From assembly GCF_058153355.1 (NCBI RefSeq), contig NZ_CM177019.1: a stretch of DNA of 64,000 nt. One strand, written 5' to 3'. Shown one piece after another: positions 32,247 to 42,430 of this stretch (positions within the stretch are counted from its first letter, which is position 1; the number at the start of each line of letters is the position of its first letter). The position numbers and the translations under genes were made by a program. Under the pieces are notes generated by a model. The model saw only the letters and a list, made by a program, of their open reading frames with translations, ran no database searches and had not been told where the DNA came from.

Positions 32247-33647
32247 ATGCCACATTCCTACGATTACGATGCCATAGTAATAGGTTCCGGCCCCGGCGGC
32301 GAAGGCGCTGCAATGGGCCTGGTTAAGCAAGGTGCGCGCGTCGCAGTTATCGAGCGTTATCAAAATGTTGGCGGCGGTTGCACCCACTGGGGCACCATCC
32401 CGTCGAAAGCTCTCCGTCACGCCGTCAGCCGCATTATAGAATTTAATCAAAACCCACTTTACAGTGACCATTCCCGACTGCTCCGCTCTTCTTTTGCCGA
32501 TATCCTTAACCATGCCGATAACGTGATTAATCAACAAACGCGTATGCGTCAGGGATTTTACGAACGTAATCACTGTGAAATATTGCAGGGGAACGCTCGC
32601 TTTGTTGACGAGCATACGTTGGCGCTGGATTGCCCGGACGGCAGCGTCGAAACACTAACCGCTGAAAAATTTGTTATTGCCTGTGGTTCTCGCCCTTATC
32701 ATCCAACAGATGTTGATTTCACCCATCCACGCATTTACGACAGCGACTCAATTCTTAGCATGCACCACGAACCGCGCCATGTACTTATCTATGGTGCTGG
32801 AGTGATCGGCTGTGAATATGCGTCGATCTTCCGCGGTATGGATGTAAAAGTAGATCTGATCAATACCCGCGATCGCCTGCTGGCATTTCTCGATCAAGAG
32901 ATGTCAGATTCTCTCTCCTATCACTTCTGGAACAGTGGTGTAGTGATTCGTCACAACGAAGAGTACGAGAAGATCGAAGGCTGTGACGACGGTGTGATCA
33001 TGCATCTGAAGTCAGGTAAAAAACTGAAAGCTGACTGTCTGCTCTATGCCAACGGTCGCACCGGTAATACCGATTCGCTAGCGTTACAGAACATTGGGCT
33101 GGAAACTGACAGCCGCGGACAACTTAAAGTCAACAGCATGTACCAGACCGCACAGCCGCACGTTTACGCGGTGGGCGACGTGATTGGTTATCCGAGCCTG
33201 GCGTCGGCGGCCTATGACCAGGGGCGCATTGCCGCGCAGGCGCTGGTGAAAGGCGAAGCCACCGCACATCTGATTGAAGATATCCCTACCGGTATTTACA
33301 CCATCCCGGAAATCAGCTCTGTGGGCAAAACCGAACAGCAGCTGACCGCGATGAAAGTGCCATATGAAGTGGGCCGCGCCCAGTTCAAACATCTGGCACG
33401 CGCACAAATCGTCGGCATGAACGTGGGCACGCTGAAAATTTTGTTCCATCGGGAAACAAAAGAGATTCTGGGCATTCACTGCTTTGGCGAGCGCGCTGCC
33501 GAAATTATTCATATCGGTCAGGCGATTATGGAACAGAAAGGTGGCGGCAACACTATTGAGTACTTCGTCAACACCACCTTTAACTACCCGACGATGGCGG
33601 AAGCCTATCGGGTAGCCGCGTTAAACGGTTTAAACCGCCTGTTTTAA
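32247..33647 (+). CDS. sthA: soluble pyridine nucleotide transhydrogenase
   Basis: 466-aa flavoprotein, GSGPGG FAD motif near N-terminus. Confidence 0.96.
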
Positions 33648-34547
33648 CACTTTATCGAAATGGCCATCCATTCTTGCGCGGATGGCCTCTGCCAGCTGCT
33701 CATAGCGGCTGCGCAGCGGTGAGCCCGGACGATAAACCAGGCCAATAGTGCGGCGTGGTTCCGGCTTAATACACGGCAAATAAACAACCCCATCGCGTTT
33801 GCGCTCCGGCGGCACAGCCAGTGCAGGCAGTAAAGTGATCCCGCTACCTGCCGCCACCATGTTGCGCAGAGTTTCCAGGCTGGTCGCGCGGAAGTGTGTA
33901 TCTTCATCCGCCCCGGCTTCAAAGCAGAAACCCATTGCCTGATCGCGCAAACAGTGACCATCTTCCAGCATCAGCAGTTTTTCCCCTGCCAGATCGGCCA
34001 TCGGTACGCATTCGCGGTTCGCCCACGGGTGATCTTCATAGATAGCCAGCAGCATTGGTTCATCAAACAATGGCACTTCAATGAATGCTTCGCTCTCTTT
34101 CACCAGCGCGAGGATCACGCAATCGAGTTTGCCGCTGTCCAGTTGCGCCAGTAACTGGTGGGTCTGTGCTTCATGCAGATACATTTCCAGCTTTGGAAAG
34201 GTCTGGTGCAGCATCGGGATAATATGCGGTAACAGGTAAGGCCCAACCGTTGGAATCAAACCAATATGCAGCGGTCCGGACATCGTCTCGCCCTGCTGGC
34301 TTGCCATCTCTTTAAGGACTTTCACCTCACGCAGCACGGTACGCGCCTGATCCACCAGCAGCATTCCCGCCTGGGTGAACAACACTTTACGGCTGGTCCG
34401 CTCCAGCAACATCACGCCCAGCTCATCTTCCAGCTTACGAATTTGCCCGCTAAGCGTCGGCTGGCTAACGTGGCAGGAGTCTGCCGCACGCCGAAAATGG
34501 CGGTGTTCAGCCAATGCCACCAGGTACTCAAGATCACGAATATTCAT
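33630..34547 (-). CDS. oxyR: LysR-family hydrogen peroxide-inducible regulator OxyR (start at [12 protein letters not shown])
   Basis: 305-aa OxyR with redox cysteines; 18-bp convergent 3' overlap with sthA. Confidence 0.96.
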
Positions 34548-34642: not shown

Positions 34643-34751
34643 GAAACGGAGCGGCACCTCTTTTAACCCTTGAAGTCACTGCCCGTTTCGAGAGTTTCTC
34701 AACTCGAATAACTAAAGCCAACGTGAACTTTTGCGGATCCCCAGGATCCGC
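34643..34751 (+). ncRNA. oxyS: OxyS small regulatory RNA, divergent from oxyR, ending in a GC hairpin plus T8 terminator (34733-34760)
   Basis: Sequence GAAACGGAGCGGCACCTCTTTTAACCCTTGAAGTCACTGCCCGTTTCGAGAGTTTCTCAACTCGAATAACTAAAGCCAACGTGAACTTTTGCGGATC...CAGGATCCGC followed by TTTTTTTT. Confidence 0.9.
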
Positions 34752-34798
34752 TTTTTTTTATTCTACAGGCCCACAGCAAGAGAGCCTGATAGTAACAG

Positions 34799-36082
34799 TT
34801 ACTCAATCCGATCTTTGACAATAAAGAAGTAACACAGCGCCCCGGTGAACGTCACACAGGCCGCGATAACCAGCGCCAGATTAAACGAGTGCGTGGTATC
34901 CACTACCCAACCGGTTACGATCGGAGCAAAGGAAGCAAAAACAAAACTGCCAAAGTTTTGAATCCCGGCGATGGAAGCCACTTTTGTTTCTGACACCATC
35001 ACCTGCACCAGTCCCCATGCAGATGTTCCCGCGAAATGCACGCAGAACAGCGCCATTGAGATAAACGCTACAGCCTGGGCTGGCGAGGAGGATTGCACGA
35101 CCAGCAACGTGCCTAATGCCGACATCATCAAACCGCAGACAATAGCCGTTTTACGCGTCTTCGCCAGGTCGTAGCCTTTTTTCGCCAGCCGATCGACAAC
35201 AATACCGTTAACCCACATCCCGACCGCCGCCGCGAGGAAAGGAATCGCCGCCACCCAACCGGTTTTCGCCAGACTGAAGCCTTGCTCGGCTTGTAAATAA
35301 CCGGGTAACCACGCGATGTAGAGCCAACCGGTATAATTGACGCCAGAGAAACCTAAAATCATCCCCCAGGTTGTCCGATGCTTAAACAGCGCCAGCCACT
35401 CGCTAAATTGTAATTGTGGACGCGGTTTAACCGGCGCGGAGAGATAGGTCCGTTCTTCGTCGGTCAGGACAAACTGCGCCCGGTTGCGATACCACGCGTA
35501 CCAACAGATCCCAACCAGAATCCCCGCCACGCCGATGATGACGAACATTGCCCGCCAGCCCCATGCCAGCTGCATCAATACAAGAGCAGGAGGCGCAATA
35601 GCCTGACCGATAACGGTAGATGAGTTAAAAATCCCCAGCGCCGTGCCGCGTTCTTTTTGCGCATACCAGTCGGTGATCGACTTTACTCCCGCAGGCATAA
35701 ATGGCGCTTCGCCAATACCCAGACCGATACGCATTAAAATAAAGTGGCTAAAAGAATTAACCATTCCTGTTAATGCCTGCATTAATGACCAGAATATTAA
35801 GCCTGCGCCTAAAACTATTCGTGGGCCAAAGCGGTCTAGCAAAATACCGGAAGGGAGTTGTGAAAAACCATAAGACAGAGAAAATGCAGAAAGCAAAACG
35901 CCAAATTCTGTCGCCGATAATCCTAACTCGCCACGAATCGCTTCGCCTGCCACGCTCAATGACGAACGGTCGAGGAAATTAACGATCCCCGCCATAAATA
36001 ATAAAACCAGCGTTACTGTCTGAATACGACGAATCCGTTGCGGTTTATTACCCGCAACACTGGTTGACACATCAACGTCCAT
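34799..36082 (-). CDS. MFS transporter, anion:cation symporter (DgoT/ExuT-like hexuronate or sugar-acid permease) family; not present at this locus in K-12
   Basis: 427-aa ORF with 12 predicted hydrophobic segments and a good SD (AGGAGCTAAAAATG). Confidence 0.75.
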   Translation of the reverse strand: MDVDVSTSVAGNKPQRIRRIQTVTLVLLFMAGIVNFLDRSSLSVAGEAIRGELGLSATEFGVLLSAFSLSYGFSQLPSGILLDRFGPRIVLGAGLIFWSLMQALTGMVNSFSHFILMRIGLGIGEAPFMPAGVKSITDWYAQKERGTALGIFNSSTVIGQAIAPPALVLMQLAWGWRAMFVIIGVAGILVGICWYAWYRNRAQFVLTDEERTYLSAPVKPRPQLQFSEWLALFKHRTTWGMILGFSGVNYTGWLYIAWLPGYLQAEQGFSLAKTGWVAAIPFLAAAVGMWVNGIVVDRLAKKGYDLAKTRKTAIVCGLMMSALGTLLVVQSSSPAQAVAFISMALFCVHFAGTSAWGLVQVMVSETKVASIAGIQNFGSFVFASFAPIVTGWVVDTTHSFNLALVIAACVTFTGALCYFFIVKDRIE

Positions 36083-36148
36083 TTTTAGCTCCTTGAGCGG
36101 AATTAATCGATTTGCTGACTATTCAGAAAATAATTAAGCGAACCGTTA

Positions 36149-37363
36149 TTACCAGTTCCACAATGTGCCATCTTCCAGTCGTGCGACGGGGAGATACGCC
36201 GGGTCATACGGATATTTCGCCGCCAGTTTCTCATCGAAAGAAATACCCAGCCCCGGTTCATCGCCTGGGTGCATATAACCTTCATCGAAGCGCCAGCTGT
36301 GCGGGAAGACTTCAAGCATTTGTTCGGAATAGCCCATGTACTCCTGAACGCCAAAGTTTGGCACCCAGAGGTCAAAATGCAGCGCCGCCGCATGACAAAC
36401 AGGCGATAAATCTGAAGGGCCATGCGAACCGGTACGTACCTGATAAAGCGATGCAAAATCGGCAATCCGTCGCATCCCGGTAATGCCGCCTGCATGGGTA
36501 ATCGTCGTGCGAATATAGTCAATCAGCTGCTCTTCGATTAACTGCTTGCAGTCCCAGATACTGTTAAACACTTCACCGACCGCAATCGGCGTCACAGTAT
36601 GCTGGCGAATCAGACGAAAACATTCCTGGTTCTCGGCAGGCGTCGGATCTTCCATCCAGAACAGGCGGTAATCCTCAATGCTCTTCCCAAAGCGCGCCGC
36701 TTCGATAGGAGTCAGGCGATGGTGCATGTCATGCAACAGATGTTCGTTAAAACCGAACTTATTACGCACCGCTTCAAATAACTTCGGTGTAAAATCGAGA
36801 TACTTTTCTGAAGACCACAACTGCTCTTCCGGCCACAGGCCTTTGGTTGCCGGTTCATACGCCAGTCCTTTGCCCTTCGCCAGGCCATAAGTTGTTTGCA
36901 TACCCGGTACACCACACTGCACACGAATCGCCTTAAAGCCCATCTGCTGGTGCTTTGCATAGTCTTCAAGGACTTCATCAATCGTGCGCCCGGTGGTATG
37001 GCAATAAACCATCACGCCTTCACGAGAAGCCCCACCAAGCAGTTGATACAATGGCATATTTGCCGCTTTGGCTTTGATATCCCACAACGCCATATCAATG
37101 GCAGAAATGGCCGACATCGTGACGGGGCCACGTCGCCAGTAAGCACCTTTATAAAAGAATTGCCAGATATCTTCGATACGGCTGGCATCGCGGCCAATTA
37201 ATTGTGGACAAAGATGATCTTTCAGATAAGAAGCGACCGACAATTCGCGACCATTTAATGTGGCATCTCCCAATCCACAAAGTCCGCTTGCAGTGGTTAT
37301 TTTAAGCGTAACGAAATTACGTCCTGGGCAAGTAACAAAAACATCTGCAGCAATAATTTTCAT
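36149..37363 (-). CDS. enolase-superfamily sugar-acid dehydratase, D-mannonate dehydratase (ManD)/RspA family (start at [17 protein letters not shown])
   Basis: 404-aa ORF with strong resemblance to RspA/ManD-type dehydratases; SD CAGGAGATTGCAATAATG. Confidence 0.75.
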
Positions 37364-37848
37364 TATTGCAATCTCCTGTGTTGTAAATAGACGCTTCAAA
37401 CTTAATTTTACGCCTACTACCATACAAGAGAGAAAGAGCGATTATTCAACCGTGATCACATTAAAAATAAAAATTTCCGCCGAGGAGAAAAACCCCCCTC
37501 AAAAACCACCTGAATAATTAACCATCATCGTTAAAACAACACGTTAAATAATCACATAACAAACTCCATTAATCATTAAAAATGAGCGCAGCAATAGAAA
37601 TGAATTATATTCAATTAATTAAAATATGTATTGATTGATGTATTGAAAATATGATTTTCATGGGGAGAGTGAAGGTAAAGAAGACGCAAGAATAAAAAGG
37701 AATATGACAAATAATAGTTCTGGTTGGGCGTTAAATTTAAGGTCACCAGAATGCTGACAAATTTCTGCCTGAGGCAGTCCGCCTACGTAGTGTCGCTACT
37801 TTATAGGCGTGGTAAGCTCCCCATTTTCAGGGGAGCAATATAAACCAA

Positions 37849-39222
37849 TTACTCCAACCGCGCCTGCGCAAAAGCAATCGCCTGCGCCACCTGCTGCGGG
37901 GAGACGCCGCCTTTTGCTGCACGCTTGTCGAGGCACGATTGCAGCGACAGAATCGGATAGACATCTTCGCCAATCACCTGACTGAATTTCTGCAACTCAC
38001 TGAGCGGCAGTTCTTCCAGCGGTTTGCCCTGACGAATGGCTTCCACCACCGCTTCACCCACAATATGGTGCGCCTCGCGGAACGGCACACCTTTCGCCAC
38101 CAGGTAATCCGCCAGTTCAGTGGCGTTCGCATACCCCTGCTGCGCCGCTTCCTGGCAACGCGGACGTTTCACCTGAATCCCGTCCAGCACCAGCGCCGCC
38201 ATATGCAGGCAGTCCAGCCAGGTATCGAGCGCGTCGAACAGACCTTCTTTATCTTCCTGCATATCTTTGTTATAGGCCAGCGGCAGACCTTTCAGCGTCA
38301 TCATCATGCCAGTCAACGCGCCCTGAACACGACCGCATTTACCCCGAATCAGCTCCAGCGCATCCGGGTTTTTCTTCTGCGGCATTAATGATGAACCGGA
38401 AGTAACACGATCAGAAAGCTCCACAAAACCCGCTTCGCCGGTGTTAAAGAAAATCAGATCTTCGGCAAAACGCGACAAATGCACCATACCGATAGCGGCG
38501 GCAGAAAGCAGTTCCAGCACGTGGTCGCGGTCAGAAACGCTGTCGAGACTGTTACGGGTCGCCGAGGCAAAGCCCAGCCAGCCTGCTAACTGTTCACGGT
38601 CGATTTCATAGGCCGTTCCCGCCAGTGCGCCACAGCCTAACGGGCTGACATCCAGACGCTTAAGCGCATCCTGCAAACGGCTTTCATCACGCGCCAGCAT
38701 CTCAACATAGGCCAGGCACCAGTGCGCAAACGTCACCGGCTGGGCGCGTTGCAGGTGAGTATAACCAGGCATTACCGCGTCCTGATTATTCTGCGCGGTC
38801 TCGACCAGAGCGGATTGTAACTGTCGGTTAGCCGTCAGCAACTCGCTAACGGTATCCTTGCACCACAGTTTCAGGTCAGTCGCTACCTGATCATTACGGC
38901 TACGCCCGGTATGCAATTTTTTGCCTAACTGGCCCACTTTGTCGATCAGTTTGCCTTCCACCCAGCTATGGATATCTTCGGCGTCGCTTTCAAGAATTTG
39001 TTGTGGCCTGGCGCGAACATCTTCCAGCAGCACGTTCAGCGCCTCTTCCAGTTGCGCCTGCTCTTCTGCGGTTAACACGCCGACCGTGACCAGGGCTTTG
39101 GACCAGGCCACAGAGCCAACAATATCCTGCTCCGCCAGACGGTAATCAAAGCGCAGTGAGTCGTTGAATTGTTTGAACCGTTGATCTGCTGCCTGGGTAA
39201 AACGCCCGCCCCAAAGTGCCAT
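37849..39222 (-). CDS. argH: argininosuccinate lyase
   Basis: 457-aa [37 protein letters not shown]... Confidence 0.96.
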
Positions 39223-41071: not shown

Positions 41072-41164
41072 CGGGGCTATTCACCTTCTTATGTCTGGTT
41101 GCCTGGTTAAACGTAAAACATTCACCTTACGGCTGGTGGGTTTTATTACGCTCAACGTTAGTGT

Positions 41165-41202
41165 ATTTTTATTCATAAATACTGCATGAATATTGATACT
41201 AT
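41165..41202. promoter_or_regulatory. argE/argCBH divergent control region with tandem ARG boxes (ArgR operator)
   Basis: TTATTCATAAATACTGCATGAATATTGATACT fits two adjacent ARG-box palindromes between divergent argC and argE. Confidence 0.7.
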
Positions 41203-42379: not shown

Positions 42380-42430
42380 GTAGGCCAAACAATGTCGGAT
42401 GCGATGCTTGCGCATCTTATCCGACCTACA
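42380..42430. repeat. REP (repetitive extragenic palindromic) element downstream of argE
   Basis: GTAGGCCAAACAATGTCGGATGCGATGCTTGCGCATCTTATCCGACCTACA palindromic unit. Confidence 0.7.

Follow-up and report, generated by a model that had tools for sequence, protein, structure and literature searches.

A diverged rspA-type promoter, rather than two AT-rich palindromes, as the probable control region of the accessory manD operon between argH and oxyS of Escherichia coli

Introduction

What controls an operon that carries no regulator of its own? The question is raised by two accessory genes in the stretch of DNA analysed here (hereafter the window, 64,000 nucleotides), which is an E. coli-type chromosome segment. 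These genes, encoding the D-mannonate dehydratase ManD and a transporter of the MFS type, are the only ones between oxyS and argH, and the original prediction was thus right in stating that no regulator is encoded within the module. The same prediction described the region upstream of manD (37430-37790) as an AT-rich leader, singled out two inverted repeats in it as candidate operators and looked to H-NS, CRP or a distant GntR/IclR-type regulator for control.

ManD is a paralogue of RspA, and the rspA promoter of E. coli K-12 provides a reference. There, RspR (YdfH, GntR family) acts as a repressor and leaves a 31-bp footprint centred on ATACnnGTAT, and the transcription start has been mapped 30 nt upstream of the ATG (PMC8249747). 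Sites for both RspR and CRP are known in this promoter, rspAp (10.1101/2025.05.13.653802).

Materials and methods

The spacer between argH and manD was aligned across nine variants, comprising the window, six E. coli haplotypes sampled evenly along the BLAST ranking, Escherichia whittamii and a long-island variant, and 17 metagenome contigs were added to the comparison. Relatives were sought in one genome per species, and 80 ManD/RspA loci from other genera were taken into account. The upstream regions of 80 ManD/RspA loci were aligned on a shared motif, and a profile (R1) was built by sequence only from 78 of the loci, with the island copies excluded.

Results

The stop codon of argH (37849) and the terminator of oxyS (34759) are the precise points at which homology between the window and K-12 breaks off. 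Positions 34760-37848 therefore form a 3.1-kb accessory module that replaces the K-12 argH-oxyS spacer, which is only 54 bp long and contains the canonical argH terminator. The dehydratase matches PDB 4IL2, annotated as "Starvation sensing protein rspA" (E=5e-270). A strain 99% identical to the window has the same manD start, ATG 37363, in its RefSeq annotation, and the mechanical open reading frame extends to 37423; with the start at 37363, the spacer between argH and manD spans 37364-37848, or 485 bp. Among 5426 complete E. coli genomes, 1867, or about one third, carry this spacer. Other arrangements of the locus were also encountered: a third allelic state, the long-island variant exemplified by strain WP9-S17-ESBL-11, combines manD-MFS with a 9-kb sugar operon that includes a DeoR regulator, its region upstream of manD passing into a degenerate second copy of OxyS, and an IS1-disrupted form of the module was seen as well. 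The features of the locus are collected in Table 1.

Table 1. Positions of genes, predicted control elements and repeats at the argH-manD-oxyS locus (window coordinates).
Feature	Position	Strand	Description	Basis
sthA	32247-33647	+		
oxyR	33630-34547	-		
OxyS sRNA	34643-34752	+	137.4 bits	Rfam RF00035
oxyS terminator, end	34759		other edge of the island	
MFS transporter gene	34799-36082	-	second and last gene of the module	
manD	36149-37363	-	enolase-superfamily D-mannonate dehydratase, RspA paralogue	
manD ATG	37363-37361	-	start codon	sequence and RefSeq annotation
Shine-Dalgarno	37377-37373	-	AGGAG	sequence and RefSeq annotation
Core promoter (predicted)	37393-37427	-		position-by-position homology with the K-12 rspA promoter
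-10 (predicted)	37404-37399	-	TAAGTT; 17-nt spacer to -35	
-35 (predicted)	37427-37422	-	TTGTAT, inside invariant CTTGTATGGTAGT	
TCTCTTGTATGGTAGT	37416-37431	-	counterpart of invariant rspA element ATACTTGTATGGTAGT	
CRP-like site TAATGTGATCACGGTTGAATAA	37442-37463	-	left half TGTGA perfect, right half weak; centre about -60	
Small hairpin	37483-37500	-	invariant stem GAGGA/TCCTC, variable loop	alignment
Invariant block GTTAAAACAACACGTTAAATAATCACATAACAAACTCC	37530-37567		38 nt; about -138 to -175 from the predicted start	
Palindrome 1	37601-37613		TGAAT-TAT-ATTCA	reading of the sequence
Palindrome 2	37644-37660		TGAAAAT-ATG-ATTTTCA	reading of the sequence
Distal inverted repeat	37718-37751		TTCTGGT...ACCAGAA, enclosing TTAAATTTAA	sequence
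REP/BIME remnant	37767-37815		decayed; REP1 37767-37786, truncated inverted REP2 37803-37815	alignment
GC-rich stem-loop	37816-37836	-	7-bp stem, 7-nt loop, 12 nt past the argH stop	
argH	37849-39222	-	followed by argB and argC (-), with argE (+) beyond argC	

ManD shares 91-94% amino-acid identity with the ManD/RspA proteins of rspA loci across the Enterobacterales. In our scan of one genome per species, a ynfA-rspA-rspB locus was found nearly everywhere, and the argH-manD-MFS-oxyS layout occurred outside E. coli in E. whittamii only. The transporter is 84-89% identical in amino-acid sequence to the products of MFS genes adjacent to rspA or manD in Lelliottia, Pluralibacter, Enterobacter, Citrobacter and Raoultella; the orthologous gene lies between rspA and rspB in Lelliottia and precedes manD in the other four genera. 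Given these identities and neighbourhoods, the module looks like a transplanted fragment of an rspA-type operon. No donor emerged for its AT-rich tract: blastn of the spacer against the 80 ManD/RspA loci returned only E. whittamii and the short promoter core, and a metagenome scan with an invariant 31-mer returned 19 contigs, all of E. coli type and with the same context, without any new context or donor.

The flagged part of the spacer is indeed AT-rich, at 66.2% A+T over 37430-37790 rather than the roughly 70% originally given. The G+C content stays at 27-35% across 37470-37760, the tract that contains both palindromes, with a minimum of 27.5% at 37500-37699 compared with about 51-55% in the flanking genes. 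Both palindromes were confirmed, in sequence and in position, by reading the DNA. Counting perfect inverted repeats with arms of at least 5 and spacers of at most 4 in 37430-37790, we found 7 (6 distinct), as against 2.7 +/- 2.0 in dinucleotide shuffles (P~0.05), and a palindrome with 7-bp arms was present in 15% of such shuffles. The excess is marginal, in line with the caution attached to the palindromes from the start that they arise easily in AT-rich DNA. One of the counted repeats belongs to a decayed REP element.

Conservation in homologous islands had been set beforehand as the test of the two repeats, and the outcome went against them: both dyads vary within E. coli, and neither is whole in E. 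whittamii or in the long island. The left arm of palindrome 1 reads TTAAT in the closest relatives of the window (2014C-3075, L099 and L101) and ATAAT in IZSBS22 and C7; E. whittamii and the long island differ in both arms. Of 1719 genomes, 1255 contained an identical match to a 34-nt probe covering this palindrome, so that at least 73% of island-bearing E. coli have it intact, and its core AATnATATT is invariant in the nine variants. For palindrome 2, a probe of the same length was identical in only 149 of the 1719 genomes; apart from the window-type haplotype, a single further haplotype has this palindrome whole, the common haplotypes having ATTTTTA or ATATAATTTTTA, and E. whittamii and the long-island variant carry altered versions. 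Compensatory changes in the palindrome arms were absent among the nine aligned variants and the 17 metagenome contigs.

The palindromes could in principle be operators for a dimeric regulator of manD-MFS encoded in trans, be it ArgR-like, of the GntR/IclR type or other. They are perfect dyads with arms of 5 and 7 bp, inverted repeats are slightly more frequent here than in shuffles, and palindrome 1 with its invariant core persists in most island-bearing genomes. An operator function is, however, difficult to reconcile with a palindrome 2 that is intact in a minority of genomes, with uncompensated breaks in the arms across several E. coli lineages as well as E. whittamii and the long island, and with the frequency of 7-bp arms in shuffled sequence. 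The dyads also lie 210-270 bp upstream of the predicted transcription start, at about -210 and -255. An ARG box in particular is excluded, since the spacing is 3 nt and no second box accompanies the first; the label "ARG-box-like" given to palindrome 1 failed in a search for TGAAT-N4-ATTCA with up to two mismatches, which misses 37601-37613 and finds the true argE/argC box at 41162-41175. We thus regard operator function as very improbable, and the palindromes are probably chance products of AT-rich composition. As a separate observation, palindrome 1 encloses a perfect TATAAT on the minus strand (37609-37604), which leaves room for an upstream promoter.

A different candidate is found in the last 100 bp before manD. 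In 78 of 80 Enterobacterales ManD/RspA loci, TGTGA followed after about 30 nt by ATACTTGTATGGTAGT stands upstream of the gene. Within these 78 rspA promoters, CTTGTATGGTAG is invariant (78/78), TGTGA is kept in at least 90% and the RspR box in about 70. Profile R1 matches the 64-kb window at a single place, 37398-37465 on the minus strand (21.8 bits, E=1.3e-5), and it also matches the orthologous positions of the long-island (L005) and E. whittamii (L006) loci. The window carries TGTGATCA and CTTGTATGGTAGTAGG with the same spacing and the same distance to the ATG as in rspA loci. The first of these elements, at 37460-37453, falls in the alignment column of TGTGA in the 78 rspA promoters and is invariant in all island variants, and the 120 bp proximal to manD are nearly invariant in the nine divergent variants. 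Counted by eye, the CRP-like site agrees with the CRP consensus at 13 of 22 positions, compared with 12 of 22 for the K-12 rspA site. By homology with the mapped K-12 start, transcription would begin at about C 37393, giving a predicted 5' UTR of about 30 nt (37393-37364). The term "leader" was consequently not borne out for the flagged region, which is probably the upstream and mostly non-functional part of the 485-bp spacer. A consensus promoter scan reported nothing in the spacer and is uninformative here, because it also missed the mapped K-12 rspA promoter.

The counterpart of the rspA element in the window retains 13 of 16 invariant positions, and the changes affect the RspR box (ATACnnGTAT, overlapping the -35). 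Its right half is retained and its left half has gone from ATAC to TCTC in all nine island variants. In the window, TCTCTTGTAT keeps only the right-half GTAT and the C of the box, and a search of the spacer for a complete ATACnnGTAT gave none. As no island copy retains an unmutated left operator half, RspR repression at the island promoter is probably weakened or lost; RspR might bind the 13 of 16 positions that are retained. With the full box missing, we classify the promoter as a variant of the rspA type and not as a plain member.

Overall, the reading that we favor, with a probability of roughly 0.6, is that a diverged copy of the rspA promoter, situated within the 100 bp preceding manD, drives the operon. 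Expression would then be set mainly by cAMP-CRP through a class-I-type site (TGTGATCA, at about -60). Among the regulators proposed at the outset, the CRP and GntR-type part is compatible with the rspA homology, with H-NS considered below; the placement of control sites at the two palindromes did not hold up, the CRP/RspR-type sites lying at 37416-37463.

One portion of the AT-rich spacer is strictly conserved. The 38-nt block (Table 1) is identical in 8 of the 9 divergent variants, the other having one edge change, and 1701 of 1865 E. coli genomes carry it at 100% identity, with the adjacent 42 nt polymorphic and both flanks polymorphic or strongly diverged. It is single-copy in the window and occurs in metagenomes only in the argH-manD spacer context. 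This invariance marks the block as a part of the spacer under constraint that the rspA-promoter model leaves unexplained. The block holds an inverted copy of the 11-mer that adjoins the CRP site (GATTATTYAAC), at a distance of 103 bp or about 10 helical turns, and this long-range inverted repeat is no better than those arising in shuffles. The block could be an undescribed cis element, either a distal operator that loops to the GATTATTYAAC copy or an RNA element of a long leader, that took over control after loss of the RspR half-site, a proposal that we consider rather doubtful. If true, the block would illustrate how the regulation of a transferred paralogue can be rewired. By-eye matching of the block to the consensuses of CRP, IHF, Fis, KdgR, GntR, ExuR/UxuR, PhoP, ArcA, CpxR and OxyR gave no convincing candidate.

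The block, which contains two CGTTAAA repeats, could also be viewed as a nucleation site for H-NS; the AT-rich tract (about 37470-37760) would then be chiefly a silencing platform that holds the acquired operon off unless countered. The local drop in G+C and the accessory nature of the module, with its signs of acquisition, are consistent with such a role. The published H-NS motif is tCGATAAATT (PMC2094087). Matches at 7 or more of its 10 positions are modestly enriched (15 vs 9.0, P~0.04) and two of them fall in the block, but those at 8 or more positions are not enriched (2 vs 1.25 expected, P=0.35) and the block has none. H-NS binding is a prediction from composition and motif, and H-NS sites rarely require 38 invariant bases. 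We therefore hold silencing as the chief function of the tract to be a tentative possibility. Under the favored rspA-type reading, the G+C-poor tract 37470-37760 would be spacer DNA of an acquired module, plausibly bound by H-NS.

Between the block and the CRP-like site lies a small hairpin whose stem pairs are kept in the alignment fold, with one-sided G-U to A-U changes. It occupies the place where rspA loci have the ynfA terminator, and in K-12 the canonical terminator of the rspA locus abuts the CRP site. A T-rich run begins 8 nt beyond the hairpin on the minus strand, and the scan scores no terminator; the hairpin is possibly a weak insulator or a terminator remnant. It also lies at the center of a predicted RNA structure, in which 37554-37539 pairs with 37453-37437 around the small GAGG/CCUC hairpin. 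Such a structure could attenuate or process transcripts entering manD if the region were part of a long leader RNA, initiated at an upstream promoter (such as one using TATAAT 37609-37604 as -10) or produced by read-through from argH. Read-through fits a scan that finds no intrinsic terminator after argH and is positive on its K-12 control. The predicted fold of the 237-nt minus-strand RNA is more stable than that of shuffled sequences (z=-3.0, 1/200), the G-U to A-U changes, the constant stem and the variable loop suit the minus strand, and the invariant 38-nt block supplies one arm of the long pairing. Covariation does not bear the structure out, as a two-sided change is seen in only 1 of 75 predicted pairs and the covariation term amounts to -1.6 kcal/mol, while the long-range repeat itself is at chance level in shuffles and the spacer has no Rfam match. 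Moreover, the putative upstream promoter has a poor -35 (AATACA), and the proximal pairing arm lies upstream of the start predicted by homology. A regulatory leader of this kind appears improbable to us. Rfam scans of the spacer and 15 kb around it returned only the genuine OxyS and spurious sub-threshold matches. Small open reading frames (at least 20 aa) in the spacer were unconvincing, their frames being broken by indels among variants.

At the argH end of the spacer, the hairpin GCTCCCC-ATTTTCA-GGGGAGC was correctly read in the original prediction, which placed it at 37820-37840, four bases to the right of its actual position. It is kept in all short-island variants, including E. whittamii. 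Its proposed role as the argH terminator was not confirmed: no T/U-run follows it on either strand, the tail being UUACCACG and then REP remnants, and a terminator scan of 37300-37900 gave 0 sites, the same scan detecting the K-12 argH and oxyS terminators. Lacking a U-tract, it is not a canonical intrinsic terminator. REP1 in the window has a 13-nt internal deletion that is shared with strain 2014C-3075 and two metagenome contigs. As judged from the alignment and the metagenome variants, most E. coli have a fuller REP1 (GCCTGATGTGGCGTAAACGCCTTATCCGCCTAC) and E. whittamii has a two-REP BIME, which identifies the elements of the relatives as probable REPs by homology. The REP-derived model naRNA4 gave partial matches at the orthologous position in L086, L087 and L006 (27.9-32 bits, below the gathering score of 59.5) and no match in the window, because REP1 is internally deleted and REP2 truncated there. 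Together, the hairpin and the REP remnants form three successive stem-loops 3' of argH (fold z=-2.8). If active at all, the argH-proximal hairpin and the REP elements are more likely to stabilize the mRNA 3' end than to terminate transcription.

The distal inverted repeat is the best of the spacer and yet at chance level (score 14 vs 12.0 +/- 2.2 in shuffles, P=0.19); it is kept in E. coli and partly in E. whittamii. This distal part of the spacer (about 37660-37760) might derive by decay from a duplicated oxyS and its promoter that stayed behind when the module came together beside oxyS, which would account for its origin and not for its function. In the long island, the AT-rich tract runs directly into a degenerate OxyS (L005 5354-5476, Rfam 35.5 bits, E=5e-4), and 37729-37755 of the window aligns with the 3' end of that copy at a marginal P~0.02 against shuffles; the oxyS promoter region could also be aligned collinearly, though without significance. 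However, Rfam RF00035 has no match in 37366-37900 even at E<=10, the true oxyS aligns no better than expected by chance (37726-37770, P=0.24; longer stretches no better than shuffles), and several deletions as well as a REP insertion would be required. We consider this origin unlikely.

Discussion

Our analysis removes two tempting but unsupported operators. For an accessory operon that is common in E. coli, being carried by about one third of strains, it shifts the likely control region to a recognizable CRP/RspR-type promoter. The half-lost repressor box in a paralogous promoter may offer a testable case of a duplicated or transferred sugar-acid module escaping its ancestral repressor. The comparison also flags one short, strictly conserved sequence, the 38-nt block, and reveals that island-bearing strains lack a canonical terminator behind argH, a feature with possible consequences for 3' end formation of the arg operon. 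The result is an ordinary one and its practical value is modest.

Four known systems are relevant for comparison. The ARG box is an 18-bp palindrome, TGAAT-N4-ATTCA, found at arg promoters and usually paired, with 3 bp between the two boxes. Palindrome 1 shares its TGAAT/ATTCA half-sites and the proximity of an arg operon. In contrast to an ARG box, it has a spacer of 3 nt instead of 4, is single rather than one of a pair 3 bp apart, and lies downstream of argH instead of at a promoter, with polymorphic arms. With REP/BIME elements, the spacer shares its setting: the orthologous spot in most E. coli and in E. whittamii conforms to the REP consensus, in inverted pairs, directly 3' of a convergent or terminal gene, and the window differs in the internal deletion of REP1 and the truncation of REP2. 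With the H-NS-bound upstream regions of acquired operons, the window has in common a sharp local drop in G+C beside an accessory module and many weak motif matches, whereas its high-scoring motif matches are not enriched.

The closest parallel is the rspA promoter itself. Shared features are CTTGTATGGTAGT with the -35 TTGTAT, TGTGATC at an equal distance upstream, an equivalent -10 (TAAGTT in the window, TAGATT or TAAATT in rspA), 30 nt from the predicted start to the ATG, and a ManD/RspA paralogue downstream with the high identity noted above. The island copy differs in its left RspR half, TCTC instead of ATAC, in a -35/-10 spacer of 17 nt where rspA has 18, and in lacking the conserved TTTTGATCA between the CRP site and the box. 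The surroundings differ too, as the rspA locus has ynfA and its terminator upstream while the island has the AT-rich spacer and argH, and the partner gene in the island operon is the MFS transporter only, without rspB. Taken together, these likenesses and differences suggest that the island promoter descends from the rspA promoter and would work like it, minus the full RspR box.

Allelic states of the argH-oxyS interval

Comparing positions 34760-37848 of the window with K-12 (L004), WP9-S17-ESBL-11 (L005) and a further comparison locus (L002), we found at least four allelic states of the argH-oxyS interval in E. coli. At the 3' end of argH (window 37849-37860 and 37816-37848), island-bearing strains no longer have the canonical terminator of K-12, and no intrinsic terminator was detectable between argH and manD, so that argCBH transcripts of these strains may read through into the spacer. 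Just downstream of argE lies a partial naRNA4/REP match (32.3 bits), which is an ordinary REP element.

Long-island strains, such as E. coli WP9-S17-ESBL-11, carry a degenerate second OxyS-like copy (Rfam, 35.5 bits) with approximately 81% identity to the 3' part of oxyS across 97 nt; the copy is also present in two metagenome loci (L094 and L107). It is located between the FGGY-kinase gene and the manD upstream region, and manD-MFS is therefore bracketed by direct oxyS repeats. This copy is probably a pseudogene, a relic of the recombination that assembled the locus.

Allelic states of the argH-oxyS interval and coordinates of associated features
Feature	Location	Description
State 1	K-12 (L004)	54-bp spacer and canonical argH terminator
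State 2	window 34760-37848	manD-MFS module, 3.1 kb
State 3		~12-kb form with additional DeoR-regulated sugar operon
State 4		manD and part of MFS gene removed by IS1-mediated deletion
OxyS-like copy	L005 5354-5476	degenerate
Mechanical ORF	window 36149-37423	over-long
manD start	window 37363	true ATG
Conserved block	window 37530-37567	38 nt
TATAAT hexamer	window 37609-37604	minus strand
naRNA4/REP match	window 42391-42425	partial

Conserved and promoter-like sequences upstream of manD

Between polymorphic sequences on either side, the 38-nt block is invariant across island variants, an edge change aside, and is unchanged in 91% of 1865 genomes. The repeat CGTTAAA occurs in it twice, 13 nt apart, and its minus strand carries a GGAG-N6-ATG-TGA start-stop motif. 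Palindrome 1 (TGAAT-TAT-ATTCA), proposed in the original prediction as a candidate operator, contains a perfect TATAAT hexamer that reads TATGAT in distant variants and whose -35 (AATACA) is poor. The hexamer could belong to a secondary or cryptic promoter, a type common in AT-rich DNA. The mechanical ORF begins 20 codons ahead of the actual manD start codon and could mislead on spacer length.

Upstream of rspA/manD, alignment of loci from across Enterobacterales (A4, L007-L085) revealed an invariant ATACTTGTATGGTAGT in the rspA promoter, with TGTGA at a fixed distance from it; the interval between the two contains a second GATC (TTTTGATCA) in Enterobacteriaceae. This invariant stretch exceeds in length the ATACnnGTAT box published for RspR (PMC8249747), which suggests that operator or -35 constraint at rspA promoters reaches 6 nt further downstream than that box.
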